Below, in pieces: positions 1,390 through 36,185 of a DNA stretch of 36,185 nt. Under the pieces are notes generated by a model that made no database searches, was not told where the DNA came from, and worked only from the letters and a program-made list of their open reading frames with translations. This stretch comes from a virus. The DNA is taken from UHGV virus genome UHGV-0335474. One strand, 5' to 3'. A program made the translations under genes and the position numbers. Each line of letters starts with the position of its first letter. The stretch's first letter is position 1.

Positions 1390-2038
1390 TGGCAGCAAAT
1401 ACCGAAATATTTGGGTAGTTGGCGATCTGCACGGATGCTACACGAACCTGATGAAAAAACTGGAGACGATAGGATTCGACACCAAAAAAGACCTGCTTAT
1501 CTCGGTTGGCGATTTGGTCGATCGCGGTACAGAGAACGTCGAATGTCTGGAATTAATCACATTCCCCTGGTTCCGAGCTGTACGTGGAAACCATGAGCAA
1601 ATGATGATTGATGGCTTATCAGAGCGTGGAAACGTCAATCACTGGATGCTTAATGGCGGTGGCTGGTTCTTTAATCTCGATTACGACAAAGAAATTCTGG
1701 CTAAAGCTCTTGCCCATAAAGCAGATGAACTTCCGTTAATCATCGAACTGGTGAGCAAAGATAAAAAATATGTCATCTGCCACGCCGATTATCCTTGTGA
1801 CGAATACGAGTTTGGAAAGCCAGTTGATCATCAGCAGGTAATCTGGAACCGCGAACGAATCAGCAACTCACAAGACGGGATCGTAAAAGAAATCAAAGGA
1901 GCGGACACGTTCATCTTTGGTCATACGCCAGCAGTGAAACCACTCAAATTTGCCAACCAGATGTATATCGATACCGGCGCAGTGTTCTGCGGAAACCTCA
2001 CATTGATTCAGGTACAGGGAGAAGGCGCGTGGGCATAA
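1367..2038 (+). CDS. ninI: NinI Ser/Thr protein phosphatase
   Basis: Metallophosphatase motifs GDLHG, GDLVDRG, GNHE. Start set at the internal MRYYERIDG by comparison with lambda PPase; the track ORF from 1292 is an in-frame extension overlapping ninH. Confidence 0.85.
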
Positions 2039-2547
2039 GAGAACTAAACCTCACCAAAGAACAGCATGAGTGGCTGAATGGCTGGCTTGAACTGTGGGGC
2101 GCATGGGTTTATTCAGGTCGTCTGGAAAAGCGCATGAGCAGCGTAATAGCGAAGTTCATGGAGAGCGTAGAGCCGGGAAGAGTTATGACAAGGCCAATGT
2201 GCAATGATGATGATGGAATGTTGATTTCTCAGGTCGTCGATTCCGTCATGTACATTGACAAAAAAGCCTTTGGCATCCTCCTCAGCTACTACGCTCATGG
2301 TTCATCTAAGCGAGCAATTGCATCCTACTATCACGCGACTGCAAAGCCACGCAAGATGTGTGGACGTGGTGGCGAGGGATGGAGAAAACCTTCACTGGCA
2401 ACCTGTAGAAACGAAATTGACGACATCCTGAAAGCGTCATTATTTGTTTTATACCAGCCAATGCAAAATGCTTTCAAAATGCGTAAACGTGTTGAGAAAG
2501 TTAAGCATGTTGCTGTTAAAAGCCTTGACATGCAATTAGCCATTTAG
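2029..2547 (+). CDS. Q: Late-gene antiterminator Q (non-lambda type, phage 21/82-like)
   Basis: Lies between ninI and the lysis cassette. Protein does not resemble lambda Q; family assignment is from position and recalled similarity. Probable GTG start at 2029 after GGAG; start uncertain (alternative internal ATGs). Confidence 0.6.
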
Positions 2548-2554
2548 CCATAAT
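2525..2554 (+). promoter_or_regulatory. Putative late promoter pR'-like (-35 TTGACA, -10 CATAAT, 18-nt spacer)
   Basis: TTGACA at 2525-2530 and CATAAT at 2549-2554, overlapping the Q 3' end and upstream of the lysis genes. Confidence 0.4.
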
Positions 2555-2565
2555 TAGAGGGTAAG

Positions 2566-2602
2566 CTGCCGTTAGTGACTCTTAAGTTGCAACGGTGGCT
2601 TT
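2566..2602 (+). terminator. Putative tR'-like terminator/pause region downstream of the late promoter
   Basis: Imperfect stem GCTGCCGTT...AACGGTGGC followed by a T7 run; weak stem with a long loop. Confidence 0.3.
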
Positions 2603-2886
2603 TTTTATTTGCACAACAGGTAAGAGCATTGAGTCGATAATCGTGAAGAGTCGGCGCGCCTGGTTAGCCAGTGCTCTTTCCGTTGTGCTGAATTAAGCGA
2701 ATACCGGAAGCAGAACCGGATCACCAAATGCGTACAGGCGTCATCGCCGCCCAGCAACAGCACAACCCAAACTGAGCCGTAGCCACTGGCTATCCTGAAT
2801 TCATCAGTGATAGTTACGCTGCGGCCTTCTTTTTTCCCCTTCCCAATATAAGAACTACGCAATCCGTTACTGGCGGAGGCGTTGCT

Positions 2887-3102
2887 ATGAAATCAATGGA
2901 CAAAATCTCAACTGGCATTGCCTACGGAACATCCGCTGGTAGTGCGGGATACTGGTTTTTGCAGTGGTTGGATCAGGTCAGCCCATCACAGTGGGCTGCG
3001 ATTGGAGTGCTTGGAAGCCTTGTGTTGGGCTTTCTCACCTATCTGACAAATCTGTACTTCAAAATCAGAGAAGACAGAAGAAAGGCTGCGAGAGGTGAAT
3101 AA
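2887..3102 (+). CDS. S: Class II holin (pinholin, S21-like) with dual-start motif
   Basis: 71 aa, [71 protein letters not shown]. Two Met codons (M1, M4) as in the phage 21 holin/antiholin; two TMDs. Confidence 0.9.
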
Positions 3103-3599
3103 TGCCTCCATCATTACGAAAAGCCGTTGCTGCTGCTATTGGTGGCGGAGCAATTGCTATAGCATCAGTGTTAATCACTGGCCCAGGTGGTAACGATGGT
3201 CTGGAAGGTGTCAGCTACATACCATACAAAGATATTGTTGGTGTATGGACTGTATGCCACGGACACATCGGAAAAGACATCATGCTCGGAAAAACGTATA
3301 CCGAAGCAGAATGCAAAGCCCTCCTGAATAAAGACCTTGCCACTGTCGCCAGACAAATTAACCCGTACATCAAAGTCGATATACCGGAAACAACGCGCGG
3401 CGCTCTTTACTCGTTCGTCTACAACGTGGGTGCTGGTAATTTCAGAACATCGACGCTTCTTCGCAAAATAAACCAGGGCGATATCAAAGGCTCATGTGAT
3501 CAGCTACGTCGCTGGACATATGCTGGCGGTAAGCAATGGAAAGGTCTCATGACTCGTCGTGAGATTGAGCGTGAAATCTGTTTGTGGGGTCAGCAATGA
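3102..3599 (+). CDS. R: SAR endolysin (R21-like lysozyme with N-terminal signal-anchor-release domain)
   Basis: Gly/Ala-rich hydrophobic N-terminus ([20 protein letters not shown]) followed by a lysozyme-like domain. TAATG overlap with S. Confidence 0.9.
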
Positions 3600-4063
3600 A
3601 CAGAGTAACCGCGATTATCTCCGCTCTGGTTATCTGCATCATCGTCTGCCTGTCATGGGCTGTTAATCATTACCGTGATAACGCCATGACCTACAAAGAG
3701 CAGCGCGACAAAAACGCCAGAGAATTGAAGCTTGCGAACTCGACAATTACTGATATGCAGCAGCGCCAGCGTGCTGCTGATGCACTCGATGCTAAATACA
3801 CGAAGGAGTTAGCTGATGCGAAAGCTGAAAATGATGCTCTTCGGCGCAAGCTTGATAATGGTGGTCGGGTGTTCGTCAAAGGAAAATGCCCTGTGCCATC
3901 CTCAGCCGAAACCTCCAGCGCCTCCGGCATGGGCAATGATGCCACCGTCGAACTCTCTCCAGTTGCTGGACGAAACGTTCTCGGTATCCGGGACGGAATT
4001 ATCCGCGACCAAACAGCACTGAGAACGCTTCAGGAATACATCAGGACGCAATGCCTTCGATGA
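3596..4063 (+). CDS. Rz: Spanin inner-membrane subunit Rz
   Basis: N-terminal TMD then coiled-coil periplasmic domain. ATGA overlap with the R stop; start at internal MNRV of the track ORF. Confidence 0.85.
3816..4022 (+). CDS. Rz1: Spanin outer-membrane lipoprotein Rz1, embedded in the +1 frame of Rz
   Basis: [21 protein letters not shown]: lipobox with Cys, then a Pro-rich segment [11 protein letters not shown], as in lambda Rz1. Confidence 0.8.
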
Positions 4064-4237
4064 TAGCGATAATTTTACTCATCATCCTTCACATCTGGCT
4101 CTGTAGACAGGATGGTGATCACTTCTGGAGTGAATCCAGATTAAACATCTCATTGCTGATGCTTGATATTGAGCATCTTGCGCGCGGTAAGGGGCTGCGT
4201 TGAGATAAGAGCCAGTCATCACAAACACCAGGATTTA

Positions 4238-4262
4238 GCCTCGCATTCGCGGGGCTTTTTAT
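4238..4262 (+). terminator. Rho-independent terminator after the lysis cassette
   Basis: Stem GCCTCGC/GCGGGGC (one G-T wobble), loop ATTC, then T5-T7 run. Confidence 0.55.
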
Positions 4263-4367
4263 TGCCATTACAAAAGCCATTCCCTACAGAGTGGCTTTGA
4301 TAATGGCTTATACCCTACACGGGATATCTTAACTGATATCCCTTTTAACGGATAAACGGAGCCAACA

Positions 4368-4610
4368 ATGGCAGAGATTATTCCCATGACTGAAGAACAG
4401 AAATTCCAGTTAGAGATTTACAAACTGGTCATGAACCAGAACGCAGCCGCAGAAGAAGCATTTCAATTCATTGGCACTGACGAACTGAAGCTTGAGCTAT
4501 TCAAAATTCACTTCCAGTCAGGCGGCGCTAATTCGGATATCACAACCCGCACTATCGAAGCGGTGCGTAAATCGAAGGAAGCGTTAGACCTGTTCACTAC
4601 CGGAGCGTAA
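4368..4610 (+). CDS. Hypothetical protein upstream of terminase
   Basis: 80-aa ORF with GGAG upstream; acidic, helical. No family recognised. Confidence 0.45.
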   Translation: MAEIIPMTEEQKFQLEIYKLVMNQNAAAEEAFQFIGTDELKLELFKIHFQSGGANSDITTRTIEAVRKSKEALDLFTTGA

Positions 4611-4689
4611 ACATGGCAACTCAAGGTTTCGACAACCCATCCAAATTCCGCGATGAATGGGATAAGCAAGCAGAAGGGAAATAATCAAT

Positions 4690-5115
4690 ATGGCGACTGA
4701 GAAAAAGAAAGGTGGTCGCCCCTCTGATTATATGCCGGAGGTGGCTAATGACATTTGCGCATTGCTTTCCTCTGGTGAGAGTCTGCGCAAAGTTTGCGAA
4801 CGCCCAGGAATGCCGAGCAAAACATCAGTTTTTCGCTGGCTGGCTGAACATCAGGAGTTTCGTGACCAGTACGCGAAGGCAACAGAGACTCGGGCCGACT
4901 CTATTTTCGAAGAGATATTCGAAATTGCTGACGACGTAATCCCTGATGCCGCCGAGGTGGCAAAGGCAAGACTTCGCGTTGATACCCGCAAATGGGCGCT
5001 GGCCAGAATGAATCCCCGTAAGTATGGCGACAAGGTAACTAATGAGCTTGTCGGCAAAGACGGCGGCGCAATCCAGATTGAAACATCACCGATGAGCACT
5101 CTATTCGGAAAATGA
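4690..5115 (+). CDS. Terminase small subunit (Sf6 gp1-like)
   Basis: 141 aa, MATEKKKGGRPSDYMPEVANDICALLSSGESLRKVCERPGMPSKTSVFRWLAEH..., HTH-type terS very similar to Sf6 gp1 as recalled. Confidence 0.85.
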   Translation: MATEKKKGGRPSDYMPEVANDICALLSSGESLRKVCERPGMPSKTSVFRWLAEHQEFRDQYAKATETRADSIFEEIFEIADDVIPDAAEVAKARLRVDTRKWALARMNPRKYGDKVTNELVGKDGGAIQIETSPMSTLFGK

Positions 5116-23257: not shown

Positions 23258-25945
23258 ATGAGAGACATTACAGCCAATGTGATCGTATCGATGCCTTCGC
23301 AACTCTTCACTATGGCGCGTTCTTTTAAAGCCGTAGCTAATGGCAAAATTTATATCGGTAAAATTGACACTGATCCTGTAAATCCAGAAAACCAGATTCA
23401 GGTCTATGTGGAGAATGAAGACGGTTCTCACGTTCCTGTTTCGCAACCAATAATCATTAACGCTGCTGGATATCCTGTATATAACGGACAGATTGCCAAA
23501 TTCGTTACCGTGCAAGGCCATTCTATGGCTGTTTATGATGCGTATGGTGCGCAGCAGTTCTATTTTCCTAATGTGCTGAAGTATGACCCTGATCAGTCAT
23601 TGAAATATGTAGAAGGGGCATTGCTTGTTACTGACTTAGGTAATGGGACGTTTAAGAATAGTAGAAAAGACGTTGCCATTGGGGATAATCTAACAGGAAC
23701 CAATTTTATTAGAATAAACGGCGGCGTCTATAAATGCACTCCAGTTGCAACTGGAATTGTTACTGAGATCAAACATAGATACATTATCGCAGGCGGGGTT
23801 AAAAGCTACCTGTCTCATATTTCCAGGCATGTCAGTGGTACGCGTAGGCCGCTGAACTGGAAATTAGAATTCAGCATCATAGACGATGAGATTACCGCAG
23901 ATCTTAAAGATCAGTATGGTTACACGACCATGGGATTTCAGGGGATTTACATAGACAGCAATGATGGAATGGTATACATCGGCTGGCAGACGCTAGACCC
24001 CGCATCGGTATGGGTTACGGTGCATGACTGGGTAACAGGAGCATTGGTAACACGTCTTCATTTTCCGAATAACGTTGGTGCACCAGAAGGCATCCACGTT
24101 TACCGAGTGGCAGGACAGCGTTACATCCTGCTGCCGTACAGCCCATCTCGCACTATCAGAATTTACCCTATCGAAGATCCGCGTACGCTGGTTGATAAAA
24201 CGCAGATTACAAACTTCACTGAATCAACACGCCTTGGAGTGCGATATCAGTTTAGTGGCTTTGGTAATACCCTGATATACGAAAATGCGGATATGGGTTG
24301 GCCGAAAATTTTTGATGTTGAGACAGGTGTATCCAATATCTTTAACACACTGGATATTAACAGCCTTATAGAAGGATCTTACAGTCCAATGGGGACTATT
24401 ACGGTTGATGCAAATGTTGGAGGTCGCGGAGCCGGTAAACCAAAACGGCAGGGTGTCGCTCTTGGTTCTCAACGGATATTTGCTGGTATTGGTGCATCTA
24501 CCACGGCGGGATCTGGAAATACTTTCGCAGGGTTGCAGGGTTATATTGAGTACAGCCTTAATGGTTCAGAATTAGGTCAGTACCTGCTGTCACCTGCAGA
24601 TTTCAAAACATACTGGGATAGTTATTCAGGGAAGAGTGTTTACTCCACTGAAAATGAGGGGGTGCAGTCTTGTGATATTTCTGGCTCTGAGGAATTGTAT
24701 CTTCTACAGTCTATTCGCTATGACAATGGGGGCGGATCAAATTATAGGACTTTAAACATCATTCGCGCTAACTGTCCATCTAATGAACCTGGAACAGTAG
24801 ACATGACTCCGCTATCCAATGCCTCATCACAGTTATTTAACCCTCGCGGAAGGGTGATTAACGCTGGCCGTCACCCTGTAAACCCGGCTGATGGTATTGC
24901 GCTATTTACATCGGCACAGGCTATTTGTGACTATTTGCGGAATACAGATGCAGGTAGATATGTGACATATCTTGAACAGGATATGCCACTGTTTGAAGGT
25001 GGGCCATCTGCGCCAGGACAGATGACGCTGCCAGCATTCTGCCTATTGCAGATCGACTTCATCAACGGCGATACCTGGGAAATTACAGTTAATGGAACTA
25101 ACAGGGCTAATAATTATACAGGAAGGATTTCCAAAAACGGCGGGTACAACTCTTTTACTAAGGTGTCCTCCCGCAGCATGTCGATTCTCGGATCCCCTGG
25201 TCTGGTTGATGTATCAATTCGCTCACCTAACTCACTAAATCTTCCAGAATTTGCTGGAGACTGGTCTACTGGTGTAAGTATAGGAGCTGCAGGTGGGGTG
25301 ACAAACTGGCAGCCAGAAGGAACAGGTAACGGAGCATTATGGGAGTCAGGATATGCAAAAAACCGTGTGTTGCAGATATTCATGTCCACAACATCAAAAC
25401 TGTTCTTCCGCTACGCAGACGATGCTATTCGCGCAGGTAACACAGGCTGGGCTGAGGCATGGTCGTCGCTGAACACGACCGTCGATTCAAGTGGTTTCAT
25501 CAAAAAAGCCTCTCCGGTTGTGAAGATTTTCTCAGACGGTAGTAGTGAAACAAATCGCGAATCAGATGGGGTAACCGTCACACGGCTGGCATTGGGTGAA
25601 TATCTGATTGAGGGTTGCGTAGGTCTGAATGCAGATGCTTCATGGGGGGGGATTGATGGTGGATTTGAAATACCGCAGGACCGAAACAAGCAGCCGCTCA
25701 TCTGGCTGGATTATGTTGTTAACCAAGATGGATCTGTGTTGGTGAAAACGTTTCACCGCACTCATGATAACTCGCCCGTTTTTGCACGTAACGACATCCC
25801 TGGTGTTTCGAACGGTGACCCGATCGACATTCCTGCTAATCAATTCGTTTCTGTGCGAGTACAGATGCCTGAGGATTCTGCATGGAATAAGCTTAAGGAA
25901 CAACTAAATAAGGCTGAATTGATAGAAGATGATGTTGTGGAATAG
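23258..25945 (+). CDS. Tailspike protein (P22 gp9-like head-binding domain plus divergent receptor-binding domain)
   Basis: 895 aa. The first ~110 aa match the P22 tailspike N-terminus as recalled (ITANV.VS.P...F....[33 protein letters not shown]...NVLKYDPDQ); the remainder is unrelated to P22/Sf6 spikes. Confidence 0.85.
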
Positions 25946-25984
25946 GTCTGTGATATTGGCATAGGTATAAGTGTCCGCTATTTG

Positions 25985-26006
25985 GGTGGCATTACGCCAC
26001 CTTTTC
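25985..26006 (+). terminator. Rho-independent terminator after tailspike
   Basis: GGTGGC-ATTAC-GCCACC hairpin followed by a TTTT(C) run. Confidence 0.5.
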
Positions 26007-26305
26007 ATCAAGCCAGTCCGCCCATCACTGCATCATTTCTCTGCGCTTATCGTGGCAGATGCCTCACTATCACACGGTGATAGTTCATTACTGGTTTGCA
26101 TAATGGATAGAGAACTGAGGATAAAAGATATCCCAAAATCCCAAAATCTCATCTTTAGGATTTGCAGAAAGGGAGGCGTGAACAAATACCTGCGCATGAA
26201 AACGGAACTAGTCCAGATGTGATGTTTGTGGTGATTACATACATCATTAACGATGCTCGTTATGGTGAGTTTGATGACTACCCGCTGAAGTGAAAATTGT
26301 GTTGT

Positions 26306-26598
26306 GTACCAAATTGCGTACCAAACTAAAATCACAAATCATGAAACCCTTGTTCATGGCGGTTCTCAGGGGTGTTTCGCGTAATCGTGAAAGAGGAAGG
26401 TAGGTTGTTTATCTGTGTCTGTCATTGTCTATCATTGTCCACTGTAGTTAATTAACTGTCTGTTATAACTCGAAAAACAACCATTTTTTCACCTGAGTAT
26501 GTCTACGAACGTCAAATATAGTTGTTTACTGTGCGCTGTTGTCCATGTGATATTGTGTACCAGATGTGTACCAAACCATTATTTCTGAGCGTACCAAA
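26306..26598 (+). repeat. Putative attP arm-type integrase binding sites (five direct GTACCA[A/G]A repeats)
   Basis: Copies at 26306, 26318, 26557, 26568, 26591, flanking ~230 bp that would contain the core; immediately upstream of int. Confidence 0.5.
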
Positions 26599-26606
26599 TA
26601 TTATTT

Positions 26607-27785
26607 ATGGCTATAAGCGACACAAAACTGCGTACTATTTATGGTAAACCATATTCGGGCCCACAAGAAGTGGCTGATGCCGATGGCCTCAGCGTACGAA
26701 TTTCACCGAAGGGGGTCATCCAGTTCCAGTACCGCTATCGCTGGCATGGCAAGCCTAATCGACTTGGGCTTGGTCGATACCCATCCCTGTCTTTGAAGGA
26801 TGCCAGACAGATCACTGCTGACTTGCGAAAGCTCTATTTCTCAGGAACGGATCCACGCACCTATTTTGAAGAGAAGGTGGAGAACTCCATGACGGTCGCC
26901 CAGTGTCTCGACTACTGGTTCGACAATTACGTCTCTACAACTCTCAGAGAAAAGACCCAGGCACTTTACCGATCAACGGTTATGAAGCGCATGCATGACG
27001 CCTTTCCTAATCGTCCGGCATCTTCTATCACGGTTAAGCAATGGGTTGACCTGCTTACCGAAGAAGAAAGAGATAATCCACGCCGAGCAAGGCAGGTGCT
27101 AAGTCAACTAAGATCAGCAATAAGTTGGTGCATGCGGCGTCAGTTGATAGATAGTTGCGCAATTATGAGCATCCAGCCAAGGGACTTCGGCTCACGCGCT
27201 GAGGTAGGGGATCGGGTACTGTCGTATCACGAACTGGCTAAGATTTGGCTTGCTATTGAAAGAAGCCGTGCTTCTACGTCAAATAAGCTGCTTCATCAGA
27301 TGCTTATGCTGTGGGGGGCGAGGCTCTCAGAGCTTAGGCTGGCAACAAAGACAGAATTTGACCTGCTGGACAACGTATGGACCGTACCGAAAGAGCATAG
27401 CAAGATGGGTAATGTTATCCGCCGTCCAATCTTCGAACAAATTAAGCCTTTTCTCGAAAAGGCCATGACAACGTACAATGATGTTCTTTTCCCTGGAGAA
27501 GACATAAACAAACCGATCAGCATCGCTGCAGCCAACCGATTCGTAAATAGAATAAGGGGAGGGATGGATCTAGGTTACTGGCGAACACACGATTTCAGAA
27601 GAACGCTTGTTACACGGCTGTCCGAGATGAATGTCGAGCCTCATGTTACTGAGCGAATGCTCGGTCATGAACTTGGCGGGATAATGTCCGTATACAATAA
27701 ACACGACTGGATAGAGGCTCAGCGCAAAGCGTATGAGCTTCACGCTGATAAATTGTTCTGGCACATCAGGAGCATTTCTGATTAA
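26607..27785 (+). CDS. int: Tyrosine integrase
   Basis: 392 aa; conserved HDFRRT and GHELGGIMSVYNKHDW (H-x-x-R...Y catalytic region). Confidence 0.9.
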   Translation: MAISDTKLRTIYGKPYSGPQEVADADGLSVRISPKGVIQFQYRYRWHGKPNRLGLGRYPSLSLKDARQITADLRKLYFSGTDPRTYFEEKVENSMTVAQCLDYWFDNYVSTTLREKTQALYRSTVMKRMHDAFPNRPASSITVKQWVDLLTEEERDNPRRARQVLSQLRSAISWCMRRQLIDSCAIMSIQPRDFGSRAEVGDRVLSYHELAKIWLAIERSRASTSNKLLHQMLMLWGARLSELRLATKTEFDLLDNVWTVPKEHSKMGNVIRRPIFEQIKPFLEKAMTTYNDVLFPGEDINKPISIAAANRFVNRIRGGMDLGYWRTHDFRRTLVTRLSEMNVEPHVTERMLGHELGGIMSVYNKHDWIEAQRKAYELHADKLFWHIRSISD

Positions 27786-34387: not shown

Positions 34388-35409
34388 TTATAGTTTAACC
34401 ACCATCCTATCAATGGCTTCTAAGCAAGATTGTTTATATGGGGCATTAACTTTTACCCTTCTGTTCATAACTCGTACACTACCTGTTGGTAGGATCGAAA
34501 ATGGACATCCTTTAGCAAAGGCAACAACACCAGTTGTCTGAAAATCTTTAATATTTACCACTCCCTCTTCAATATTTTCGAAGTCGAAAATTTCAGGGTT
34601 ACTTAGTAATAGTTGCTGAATATCATTATCGATTGATTTTAGAACTGCGGCATAGGCTGATGCAGGCCCCATATACTGTGTAAGACGGTTTTTTGCGATC
34701 ATATGAACTTTGGGTAGTGGTCTGCTCACCGCGGTAAGTTTGTTTGCAAATGCGTAGGATGCATAAATATCAGATGGCAACTTTAATCCATAAATCAAAG
34801 AGAAAGCATTTTGAATGGCGCGACGAGAGGAATCATCAGCCATAACTGGCAAGATGAGCTTTTCTACAGCAGCTAATGCTATTTGAGTATAAATTGAAAA
34901 ACTAGGATTACAGTCAATAAATAAAACATCGTACTCATCATTTAGATCTTTAATAAGATCATTAATCCAATCAATGATGCTTACCCATGCATTTGTTCCT
35001 GGAATCTGCTGATTAGCAAGAGTGTTGATGGCGTTTGCTTGAAGCTCAAGAAGCGGGTCACCGCATACCAACGATATATTGGCTGGAATATGTTCGTTGA
35101 ATTTTTTTGGGTGTGTCAAATAATCGTGGGCATCAACAATGGGTTTTTGATAAGGCGTCGGGAGGCGCATTTGGAAGTAGCCACCCAAAGTACATCTATT
35201 ATTTATATCATGCCTAGTCAATAAGTTTATGCTTCCATTACCTATTAACCCCCCAAGAAAAAGCTCTGACAAGTTTGCCTGTGGGCACACATCAATAACC
35301 AACACGCGCTCAAGCGGGTGAATTTCTGCATATCTGCAAATAGCTTGAAATGACAGGCTTGTTTTCCCTGTTCCTCCCTTGTTGTTCCATATAGCATATT
35401 TCTTCATCA
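34388..35409 (-). CDS. ParA/MinD-superfamily ATPase with C-terminal extension, in the rexAB slot
   Basis: Deviant Walker A KGGTGKT, A' motif VLVIDVCPQAN, Walker B YDVLFIDCNPS. Start at MMKK (ATG 35409 or 35406) after an AGGAG SD; the track ORF from 35482 is an upstream extension. Confidence 0.7.
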
Positions 35410-35578
35410 TAAACTCCTGGTTAACGATGTCATTGCTGGTTAATGTTTTACCATTGGTAAAGTGGTGCACCAAGAGTGACACGGTAAACCAAATAGATCA
35501 AGACTTATGGTAAACGATTTACCAGTGGTGACATCGATAACCGAAAAAGACTGCATTTCTGCAGCCTGTTTCACACAA

Positions 35579-36185
<607 letters not shown>

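Follow-up and report, generated by a model that had tools for sequence, protein, structure and literature searches.

A predicted phage-21-type lysis cassette with an apparently recombinant spanin gene in a P22-like phage genome

Introduction

Phage 21 lyses its host by a textbook pathway that combines a pinholin, a signal-arrest-release (SAR) endolysin and spanins. In this report we describe the corresponding genes in UHGV-0335474, a virus genome of 36,185 nucleotides (nt) that was analysed along its full length and is referred to here as the window. A previous reading of the sequence, which we call the original prediction, had proposed that positions 2887-4063 hold a lysis cassette of this type, located beside a non-lambda Q gene in a genome with lambda-type nin genes.

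The holes made by S21, the holin of phage 21, are small (up to ~2 nm); they depolarise the membrane and do not pass folded endolysin (PMC6116005). The endolysin R21 undergoes Sec-dependent export, is tethered to the membrane and becomes activated upon depolarisation, as described for the SAR endolysins R21 and Lyz (PMC6116005). Spanins are needed in both the lambda and the phi21 pathways, and their genes show an architecture in which one is embedded in the +1 frame of the other (PMC6139136). The inner-membrane and outer-membrane spanins (i-spanin and o-spanin) interact via their C-terminal parts, and the DNA that the two genes share must encode both the second coiled-coil domain of Rz and Rz1 (PMC6139136).

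Results

Four overlapping genes form the cassette

Four intact, overlapping plus-strand genes span positions 2887-4063 of the window, which run exactly from the start of S to the stop codon of Rz, and the open reading frames (ORFs) originally reported there were confirmed:

S, 2887..3102, plus strand: 71 amino acids (aa); class II holin with two transmembrane domains (TMDs).
R, 3102..3599, plus strand: 165 aa; SAR endolysin, a T4-lysozyme-type muramidase (GH24).
Rz, 3596..4063, plus strand: 155 aa; i-spanin anchored by an N-terminal TMD, with a domain in the periplasm; hybrid.
Rz1, 3816..4022, plus strand: 68 aa; o-spanin, an outer-membrane lipoprotein, embedded in the +1 frame of Rz.

We consider it very probable that this region is a functional pinholin/SAR-endolysin/two-component-spanin cassette with which a P22-like phage (Lederbergvirus) lyses E. 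coli, and that it is transcribed from a Q21-type pR' promoter located just upstream. The curated Pfam cut-offs were applied to S, R, Rz and Rz1, all of which exceed them widely, and each of the four also belongs to a PHROG family classed under "lysis". As the reference we took the annotated record of Escherichia phage 21 (OL657228), whose S, R, Rz and Rz1 proteins each align with their counterpart in the window. The stop and start codons of consecutive genes overlap, by one base between S and R (TAATG) and by four bases between R and Rz (ATGA), and these junctions are consistent with coupled translation. Antisense ORFs within the cassette, such as one of 84 aa on the minus strand at 3691-3945, were set aside, because well-supported plus-strand genes cover the whole span.

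The holin and the endolysin are of the phage 21 type

The S protein is identical to the phage 21 holin/antiholin S21 at 71 of 71 residues, and each of the seven nucleotide differences between the two genes is synonymous. Its match to PF04971 ("Bacteriophage P21 holin S") reaches 122 bits against a cut-off of 26. The dual-start motif M1-K2-S3-M4 would give a 71-aa antiholin from position 2887 and a 68-aa pinholin from position 2896 (Met4), matching the annotated S21-71 and S21-68 products of phage 21. TMD2 (approximately residues 33-58) is strongly hydrophobic and is the sole segment above the Kyte-Doolittle threshold, while TMD1 corresponds to a weakly hydrophobic, Gly/Ala/Ser-rich segment (residues 8-27) that remains below it, as in S21. 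Given the 100% identity to S21, the protein would be expected to form small holes.

R is identical to R21 (PDB 3HDE; the R21 structures are 3HDE and 3HDF) at 160 of 165 residues and is equally close to E. coli RrrD (PDB 4ZPU), with E values of ~1e-109 to both 3HDE and 4ZPU. The protein matches PF00959 (Phage_lysozyme) with 151 bits against a cut-off of 22 and keeps the catalytic Glu-8aa-Asp-5aa-Thr triad as E35, D44 and T50. Its N-terminus has the composition of a SAR segment, with 60% Gly/Ala/Ser in residues 8-27, and residues 1-28 are identical to those of R21; the codon changes relative to the phage 21 gene comprise 12 synonymous and 5 non-synonymous ones. By analogy with R21, the R protein of the window would be exported, tethered to the membrane and activated by depolarisation.

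No BLASTP match was obtained between S and lambda S, nor between R and lambda R. With identities of 100% between S and S21 and of 97% between R and R21, and no match of either protein to its lambda counterpart, the cassette was correctly assigned to the pinholin/SAR-endolysin type rather than to the lambda S/R type.

The embedded spanin genes

Rz matches PF03245 (Rz) with 103 bits against a cut-off of 25, and Rz1 matches PF06085 (Rz1) with 75 bits against a cut-off of 28; the corresponding full-length matches among the PHROG families are PHROG 13 and PHROG 3198. The TMD of Rz comprises residues 1-27, and its periplasmic part contains Cys98 and Cys153. Rz1 has a lipobox, V-V-G-C19, with Ser at +2, and a mature part of 50 aa with 8 Pro and Cys27, and its start is preceded, 7 nt upstream, by an AAGGAG ribosome-binding site. 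In agreement with the original prediction, Rz1 is wholly embedded in Rz (3816-4022 inside 3596-4063), and given that (3816-3596) mod 3 = 1, it lies in the +1 frame. It spans from 0.47 to 0.91 of the Rz length, a placement within the typical range for embedded o-spanins (PMC6139136).

The cysteines Cys98 and Cys153 of Rz and Cys27 of Rz1 align opposite cysteines of phage 21 Rz and Rz1. Periplasmic cysteines of spanins form homotypic intermolecular disulfides (PMC6139136), and by analogy these three residues may have such a role.

The Rz1 gene is unannotated in vB_EcoP-611R6 (611R6), in Ayreon and in the RefSeq record of the E. coli 23AR1217 prophage, though all three contain an intact Rz1 of 68 codons. 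It has been left out of the annotation of most close relatives and should be called in this genome.

A mosaic joint inside Rz

In the direct alignment with phage 21, 96 of 152 positions are identical in Rz and 29 of 58 in Rz1. The blastn match between the window and phage 21 covers positions 2770-3843 at 95.5% identity and stops there, and the match of the Ayreon/611R6 type covers position 3596 onward. Residues 1-83 of Rz are 88-89% identical to those of phage 21, lambda, 611R6 and Ayreon alike, with 69% for CUS-3. Residues 84-155, on the other hand, are 35% identical to phage 21 and lambda and 94-100% identical to 611R6, the E. coli 23AR1217 prophage and Ayreon. At the DNA level, Rz resembles phage 21 and lambda over its first 248 nt and carries the allele of ST104, Ayreon and 611R6 in its 3' part.

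The Rz1 protein follows the second of these two patterns, being 100% identical to its counterpart in Ayreon (where it is unannotated), 97% identical to that of ST104 and ~55% identical to those of phage 21 and lambda. Its identity to the Rz1 of CUS-3, the nearest genome relative, is 30%, which rules out that the window carries the CUS-3 allele. The place in ST104 that matches Rz1 is annotated as "15 / orf44: Rz-like spanin", SPN3UB likewise has an Rz-like spanin, and a tblastn search found the 68-aa Rz1 in 84 phage records. This second spanin allele is already known, having been catalogued in phages ST104, mEp460 and Ayreon, with identities of 94-100% to the window.

The description of the cassette as phage-21-type is thus accurate for S and R, but it does not extend to the distal part of the spanin, that is, to Rz residues 84-155 (35%) and Rz1 (~55%). 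It should be added that Rz and Rz1 of phage 21 are nearly the same as those of lambda, so the spanin never told 21 from lambda. The comparisons point to a recombinant cassette, in which S, R and the 5' end of Rz appear to be phage-21 DNA and the 3' half of Rz together with Rz1 appears to derive from the second known allele. Because the C-terminal region of Rz and the embedded Rz1 come from one allele, the interacting parts of the spanin would have been inherited as a unit. The same chimeric Rz architecture is present in several viable phages.

The joint (3596-3843) falls where the Sf6 record annotates the "boundary sequence" bsq7, the conserved 5' part of Rz, a coincidence which indicates that such swaps recur. 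Its placement inside this conserved part also implies that the C-terminal region of Rz and Rz1 are exchanged together. Mosaic joints were recognised at ninI/Q and tR', in conserved DNA ahead of S and within the 5' part of Rz, which is likewise conserved; three of these joints coincide with boundary sequences annotated in CUS-3 and Sf6. Boundary sequences are short conserved segments common to otherwise different modules. The cassette is a clean illustration of lambdoid mosaicism, although its value as such is modest.

The upstream region: nin genes, Q and the late promoter

The following features were located between the nin genes and S:

Q, 2029..2547, plus strand: late-gene antiterminator of the Q21 family (E = 1.6e-92 to PDB 6JNX/6P18).
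Late promoter pR', 2525..2554, plus strand: TTGACA-18 nt-CATAAT, an 11/12 match in the promoter scan.
QBE-like direct repeats, 2534-2549, plus strand: placed by alignment to annotated phage 21 features.
Equivalent of the transcription start site, ~2561, plus strand: placed by alignment to phage 21.
Sigma-dependent pause element (SDPE) TAAGCTG, 2562-2568, plus strand: identical to phage 21.
Terminator tR', 2563-2610, plus strand: identical to phage 21.
Lambda-type non-coding spacer between tR' and S, 2600..2828, plus strand: 229 base pairs (bp), 96.9% identical to lambda 44775-45003.

Positions 240-2031 are 97.4% identical to lambda nin DNA, and the nin genes are indeed of the lambda type, with NinF, NinG, NinH and the NinI phosphatase being 100%, 98%, 100% and 96% identical to the lambda proteins, respectively. 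The Q gene beside the lysis genes is not, as had also been proposed: its product shares 86% identity with Q21, and a comparison with lambda Q gave no significant match. The lambda/non-lambda joint that the original prediction postulated is therefore real, but it sits at ninI/Q (~2031) and not between Q and S, since Q, pR', tR' and S-R are all collinear with phage 21. Judging from this collinearity, Q, pR', tR', S and R appear to constitute one phage-21-like block with internal patches.

One of the differences from phage 21 concerns Q itself. Its residues 1-100 are ~99% identical to Q21, and residues 101-162 are diverged and include a 10-aa extension, which overlaps the -35 element of pR' as well as the repeats. 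With the Q proteins of CUS-3, 611R6 and the E. coli 23AR1217 prophage, this Q shares 98-99% identity. The QBE repeats read AATTAGCC/ATTTAGCC in the window and ATTGAGCA/AATGAGCA in phage 21, so that each repeat differs at the same two positions, and the spacer of the window is 1 nt longer; in 611R6 the repeats are AATTATCC/ATTTAGCC. The divergence of the C-terminal part of Q and the altered repeats look like a co-variation of the DNA-binding part with its site. On a reading less novel than that of orf50 as a lysis gene (see below), this Q and its altered repeats may have a loading specificity of their own among Q21-family members.

The spacer is another point of difference: in place of the lambda-like DNA of the window, two transfer RNA genes (tRNA-Asn and tRNA-Thr) are present there in phage 21 and E. 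coli 23AR1217. ARAGORN found no tRNA genes in the whole window, and a permissive Rfam scan of 2450-4400 found no tRNA remnants between Q and S. Two sub-threshold Rfam matches in 2450-4400, one to a microRNA family and the other to osmY RNA, were treated as chance; the latter, inside Rz at 3757-3836 (plus strand), reached 23 bits where the gathering score is 46.9 (E = 0.018). In CUS-3, the boundary sequences bsq4 and bsq3 flank the Q-S spacer, and their equivalents in the window are at 2548-2612 and 2761-2830.

The downstream region: orf50 and a terminator-like hairpin

Two features were found immediately after Rz:

orf50, 4051..4203, plus strand: putative 50-codon ORF with a hydrophobic N-terminus that overlaps the last 13 nt of Rz.
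Intrinsic-terminator-like hairpin (4237-4256) followed by a T-run, 4237..4266, plus strand: 8-bp stem with 6 GC pairs and a TTTTATT tail, from the terminator scan.

The product of orf50 is homologous to Sf6 gene 65 and epsilon34 gp67 and belongs to PHROG 11822, a family of unknown function (E = 9e-38). The ORF recurs, at 90-100% identity, in 44 phage records and directly follows Rz in 10 of the 10 relatives inspected, whichever Rz allele precedes it. These properties raise the question of whether it is a real fifth gene of the lysis cassette, whose product would be a small membrane protein with a modulating effect on the holin or spanin. The comparison of synonymous and non-synonymous variants gave no support to orf50 being a gene: across 10 relatives, we counted 5 synonymous and 8 non-synonymous codon variants, against 5/7 and 4/8 in the control frames, so a signal of selection was absent from this set. 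As the ratio is no better than that of the control frames, orf50 as a protein under selection was rejected, and the segment may be conserved DNA and not a gene. We regard a fifth lysis gene as improbable.

The hairpin is predicted to close the lysis block. Shortly downstream of the orf50 homologues, a Rho-independent terminator is annotated in epsilon34 and a terminator in Ayreon.

The genome is P22-like

The closest genome to the window is that of CUS-3 (51% coverage at 95.6% identity). The window codes for a Sf6-type small terminase, a P22 coat, a P22 antirepressor and a tailspike with a P22 head-binding domain, followed by an integrase. The tailspike gene (895 aa) is directly followed by that of a tyrosine integrase (26607-27785), both within 23258-27785, and then by minus-strand early-left genes. 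This vegetative, circular gene order makes the window read as a phage genome and not as an integrated prophage with host flanks. Near the right end (34388-36100, minus strand), an ORF of 364 aa for a ParA/MinD-like ATPase (Pfam AAA_31, CbiA) adjoins one of 173 aa with an S24-peptidase domain.

Discussion

Reading positions 2887-4063 as a functional lysis cassette has to be weighed against several points. The function rests on homology, and the activities would be those published for S21, R21 and lambda Rz/Rz1, while the window itself provides the identity, the motifs, the architecture and the collinearity with phage 21. The R protein differs from R21 at G29, I56, E68, T98 and S131, and G29 is at the end of the SAR segment; none of the five substitutions falls on a catalytic residue. 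In Rz, an N-terminal part that is 21/lambda-like up to approximately codon 55-83 is joined to another C-terminal allele, and the compatibility of the chimera is assumed. Finally, the C-terminal half of Q and its binding repeats differ from those of Q21, so that Q-dependent read-through would follow from membership in the family and not from identity.

The first alternative to be considered is that the cassette is a decaying remnant, no longer lytic, comparable to the lysis genes of cryptic prophages (e.g., those of the DLP12 type, essD-rrrD-rzpD). The R protein is as near to RrrD of an E. coli prophage (PDB 4ZPU) as to R21, and DNA related to positions 2000-4700 occurs in 5155 of 5426 complete E. 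coli genomes, many of these copies likely being in defective prophages. However, the four ORFs are full-length, their motifs are intact, and the changes in S with respect to S21 are all synonymous; the promoter, the pause element and the terminator are intact as well. Furthermore, the genome has a complete P22-like late gene set (Sf6-type terminase, P22 coat and tailspike) in vegetative order, with the integrase after the tailspike. We therefore consider a decayed remnant very unlikely. Least probable of all is that the two parts of Rz, which meet at its internal recombination joint, are non-cognate and the spanin is impaired, leaving outer-membrane disruption inefficient or dependent on a factor such as orf50, which follows the 3' end of Rz in all ten relatives inspected: this is very unlikely, because the interacting parts (the Rz C-terminal region and Rz1) come from one allele and are 100% identical to Ayreon, the alleles compared, save that of CUS-3 (69%), share 88-89% identity over the N-terminal 83 residues, the joint lies at the recurrently swapped bsq7 boundary sequence of Sf6, orf50 has no selection signal at the protein level, and the isolated phages Ayreon, PhiR70_1, Kati and vB_EcoS-569R4 have the same chimera.

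If the region is the functional pinholin/SAR-endolysin/spanin cassette that we favour, lysis would proceed as follows. Q would load onto RNA polymerase paused at pR' and enable it to read through tR' into S-R-Rz/Rz1. The R protein would be exported by Sec and anchored, in an inactive state, to the inner membrane through a Gly/Ala-rich SAR domain that is not cleaved, and S would yield the pinholin S68 and the antiholin S71 from its two starts, with S71 restraining S68. At a set time, TMD1 of S would exit the bilayer and TMD2 would oligomerise into pinholes of up to ~2 nm, through which the membrane potential and the proton-motive force would collapse. Depolarisation would then free the SAR domain, allowing R to refold into an active muramidase (E35/D44/T50) that degrades the murein (PMC6116005). 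In the last step, Rz in the inner membrane and the lipoprotein Rz1 in the outer membrane, linked by their C-terminal parts, would fuse both membranes (PMC6139136).

The cassette is already known, since the same S-R-Rz-Rz1 combination is present in other phages and in E. coli prophages, the spanin allele and the orf50 family have been catalogued previously, and mosaic joints coincide with boundary sequences annotated before. The finding thus matters little beyond correct annotation, and its place among the described systems can be summarised by comparison with the closest of them.

Phage 21 has the same gene order and the same stop/start overlaps, with a Q21-family Q, pR', the SDPE and tR' upstream. 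Its Rz1 is of 60 aa, compared with 68 aa in the window, bor lies downstream, and the phage is a lambda-like siphovirus, in contrast to the P22-like genome described here. Lambda follows the same four-gene logic, with Rz1 embedded in the +1 frame, and the 5' 248 nt of its Rz are 91.5% identical to those of the window; its S (a class I holin that makes large holes), its R (a cytoplasmic transglycosylase) and its Q are unrelated to those of the window, with no BLASTP matches.

The nearest overall genome relatives are the P22-like E. coli phages CUS-3 and 611R6, whose DNA for Q and pR' is 97.5-98% identical and which have orf50, DUF2560 and structural genes in common with the window. Both, however, carry a lambda-type S (107 aa) and R (158 aa) and not the 21-type pair. 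The spanin of 611R6 is of the same allele as that of the window (Rz 92% identical overall and 94% over residues 84-155; Rz1 97%), while CUS-3 has yet a different Rz/Rz1 allele (Rz1 30% identical).

The full cassette is found in Ayreon (MF807953), PhiR70_1, Kati and vB_EcoS-569R4, with 100% coverage and 91-92% identity. Like the window, this group and the E. coli 23AR1217 prophage combine a 21-type S/R with a 155-aa Rz, a 68-aa Rz1 and orf50. In Ayreon, Rz1, orf50 and the C-terminal half of Rz are each 100% identical to the window, but its S is just 86% identical and the gene upstream is a DNA methylase instead of Q. In the E. coli 23AR1217 prophage, the cassette is 94.9% identical and is preceded by NinG-NinH-phosphatase-Q at 98%, with the difference that the prophage keeps tRNA-Asn and tRNA-Thr between Q and S.

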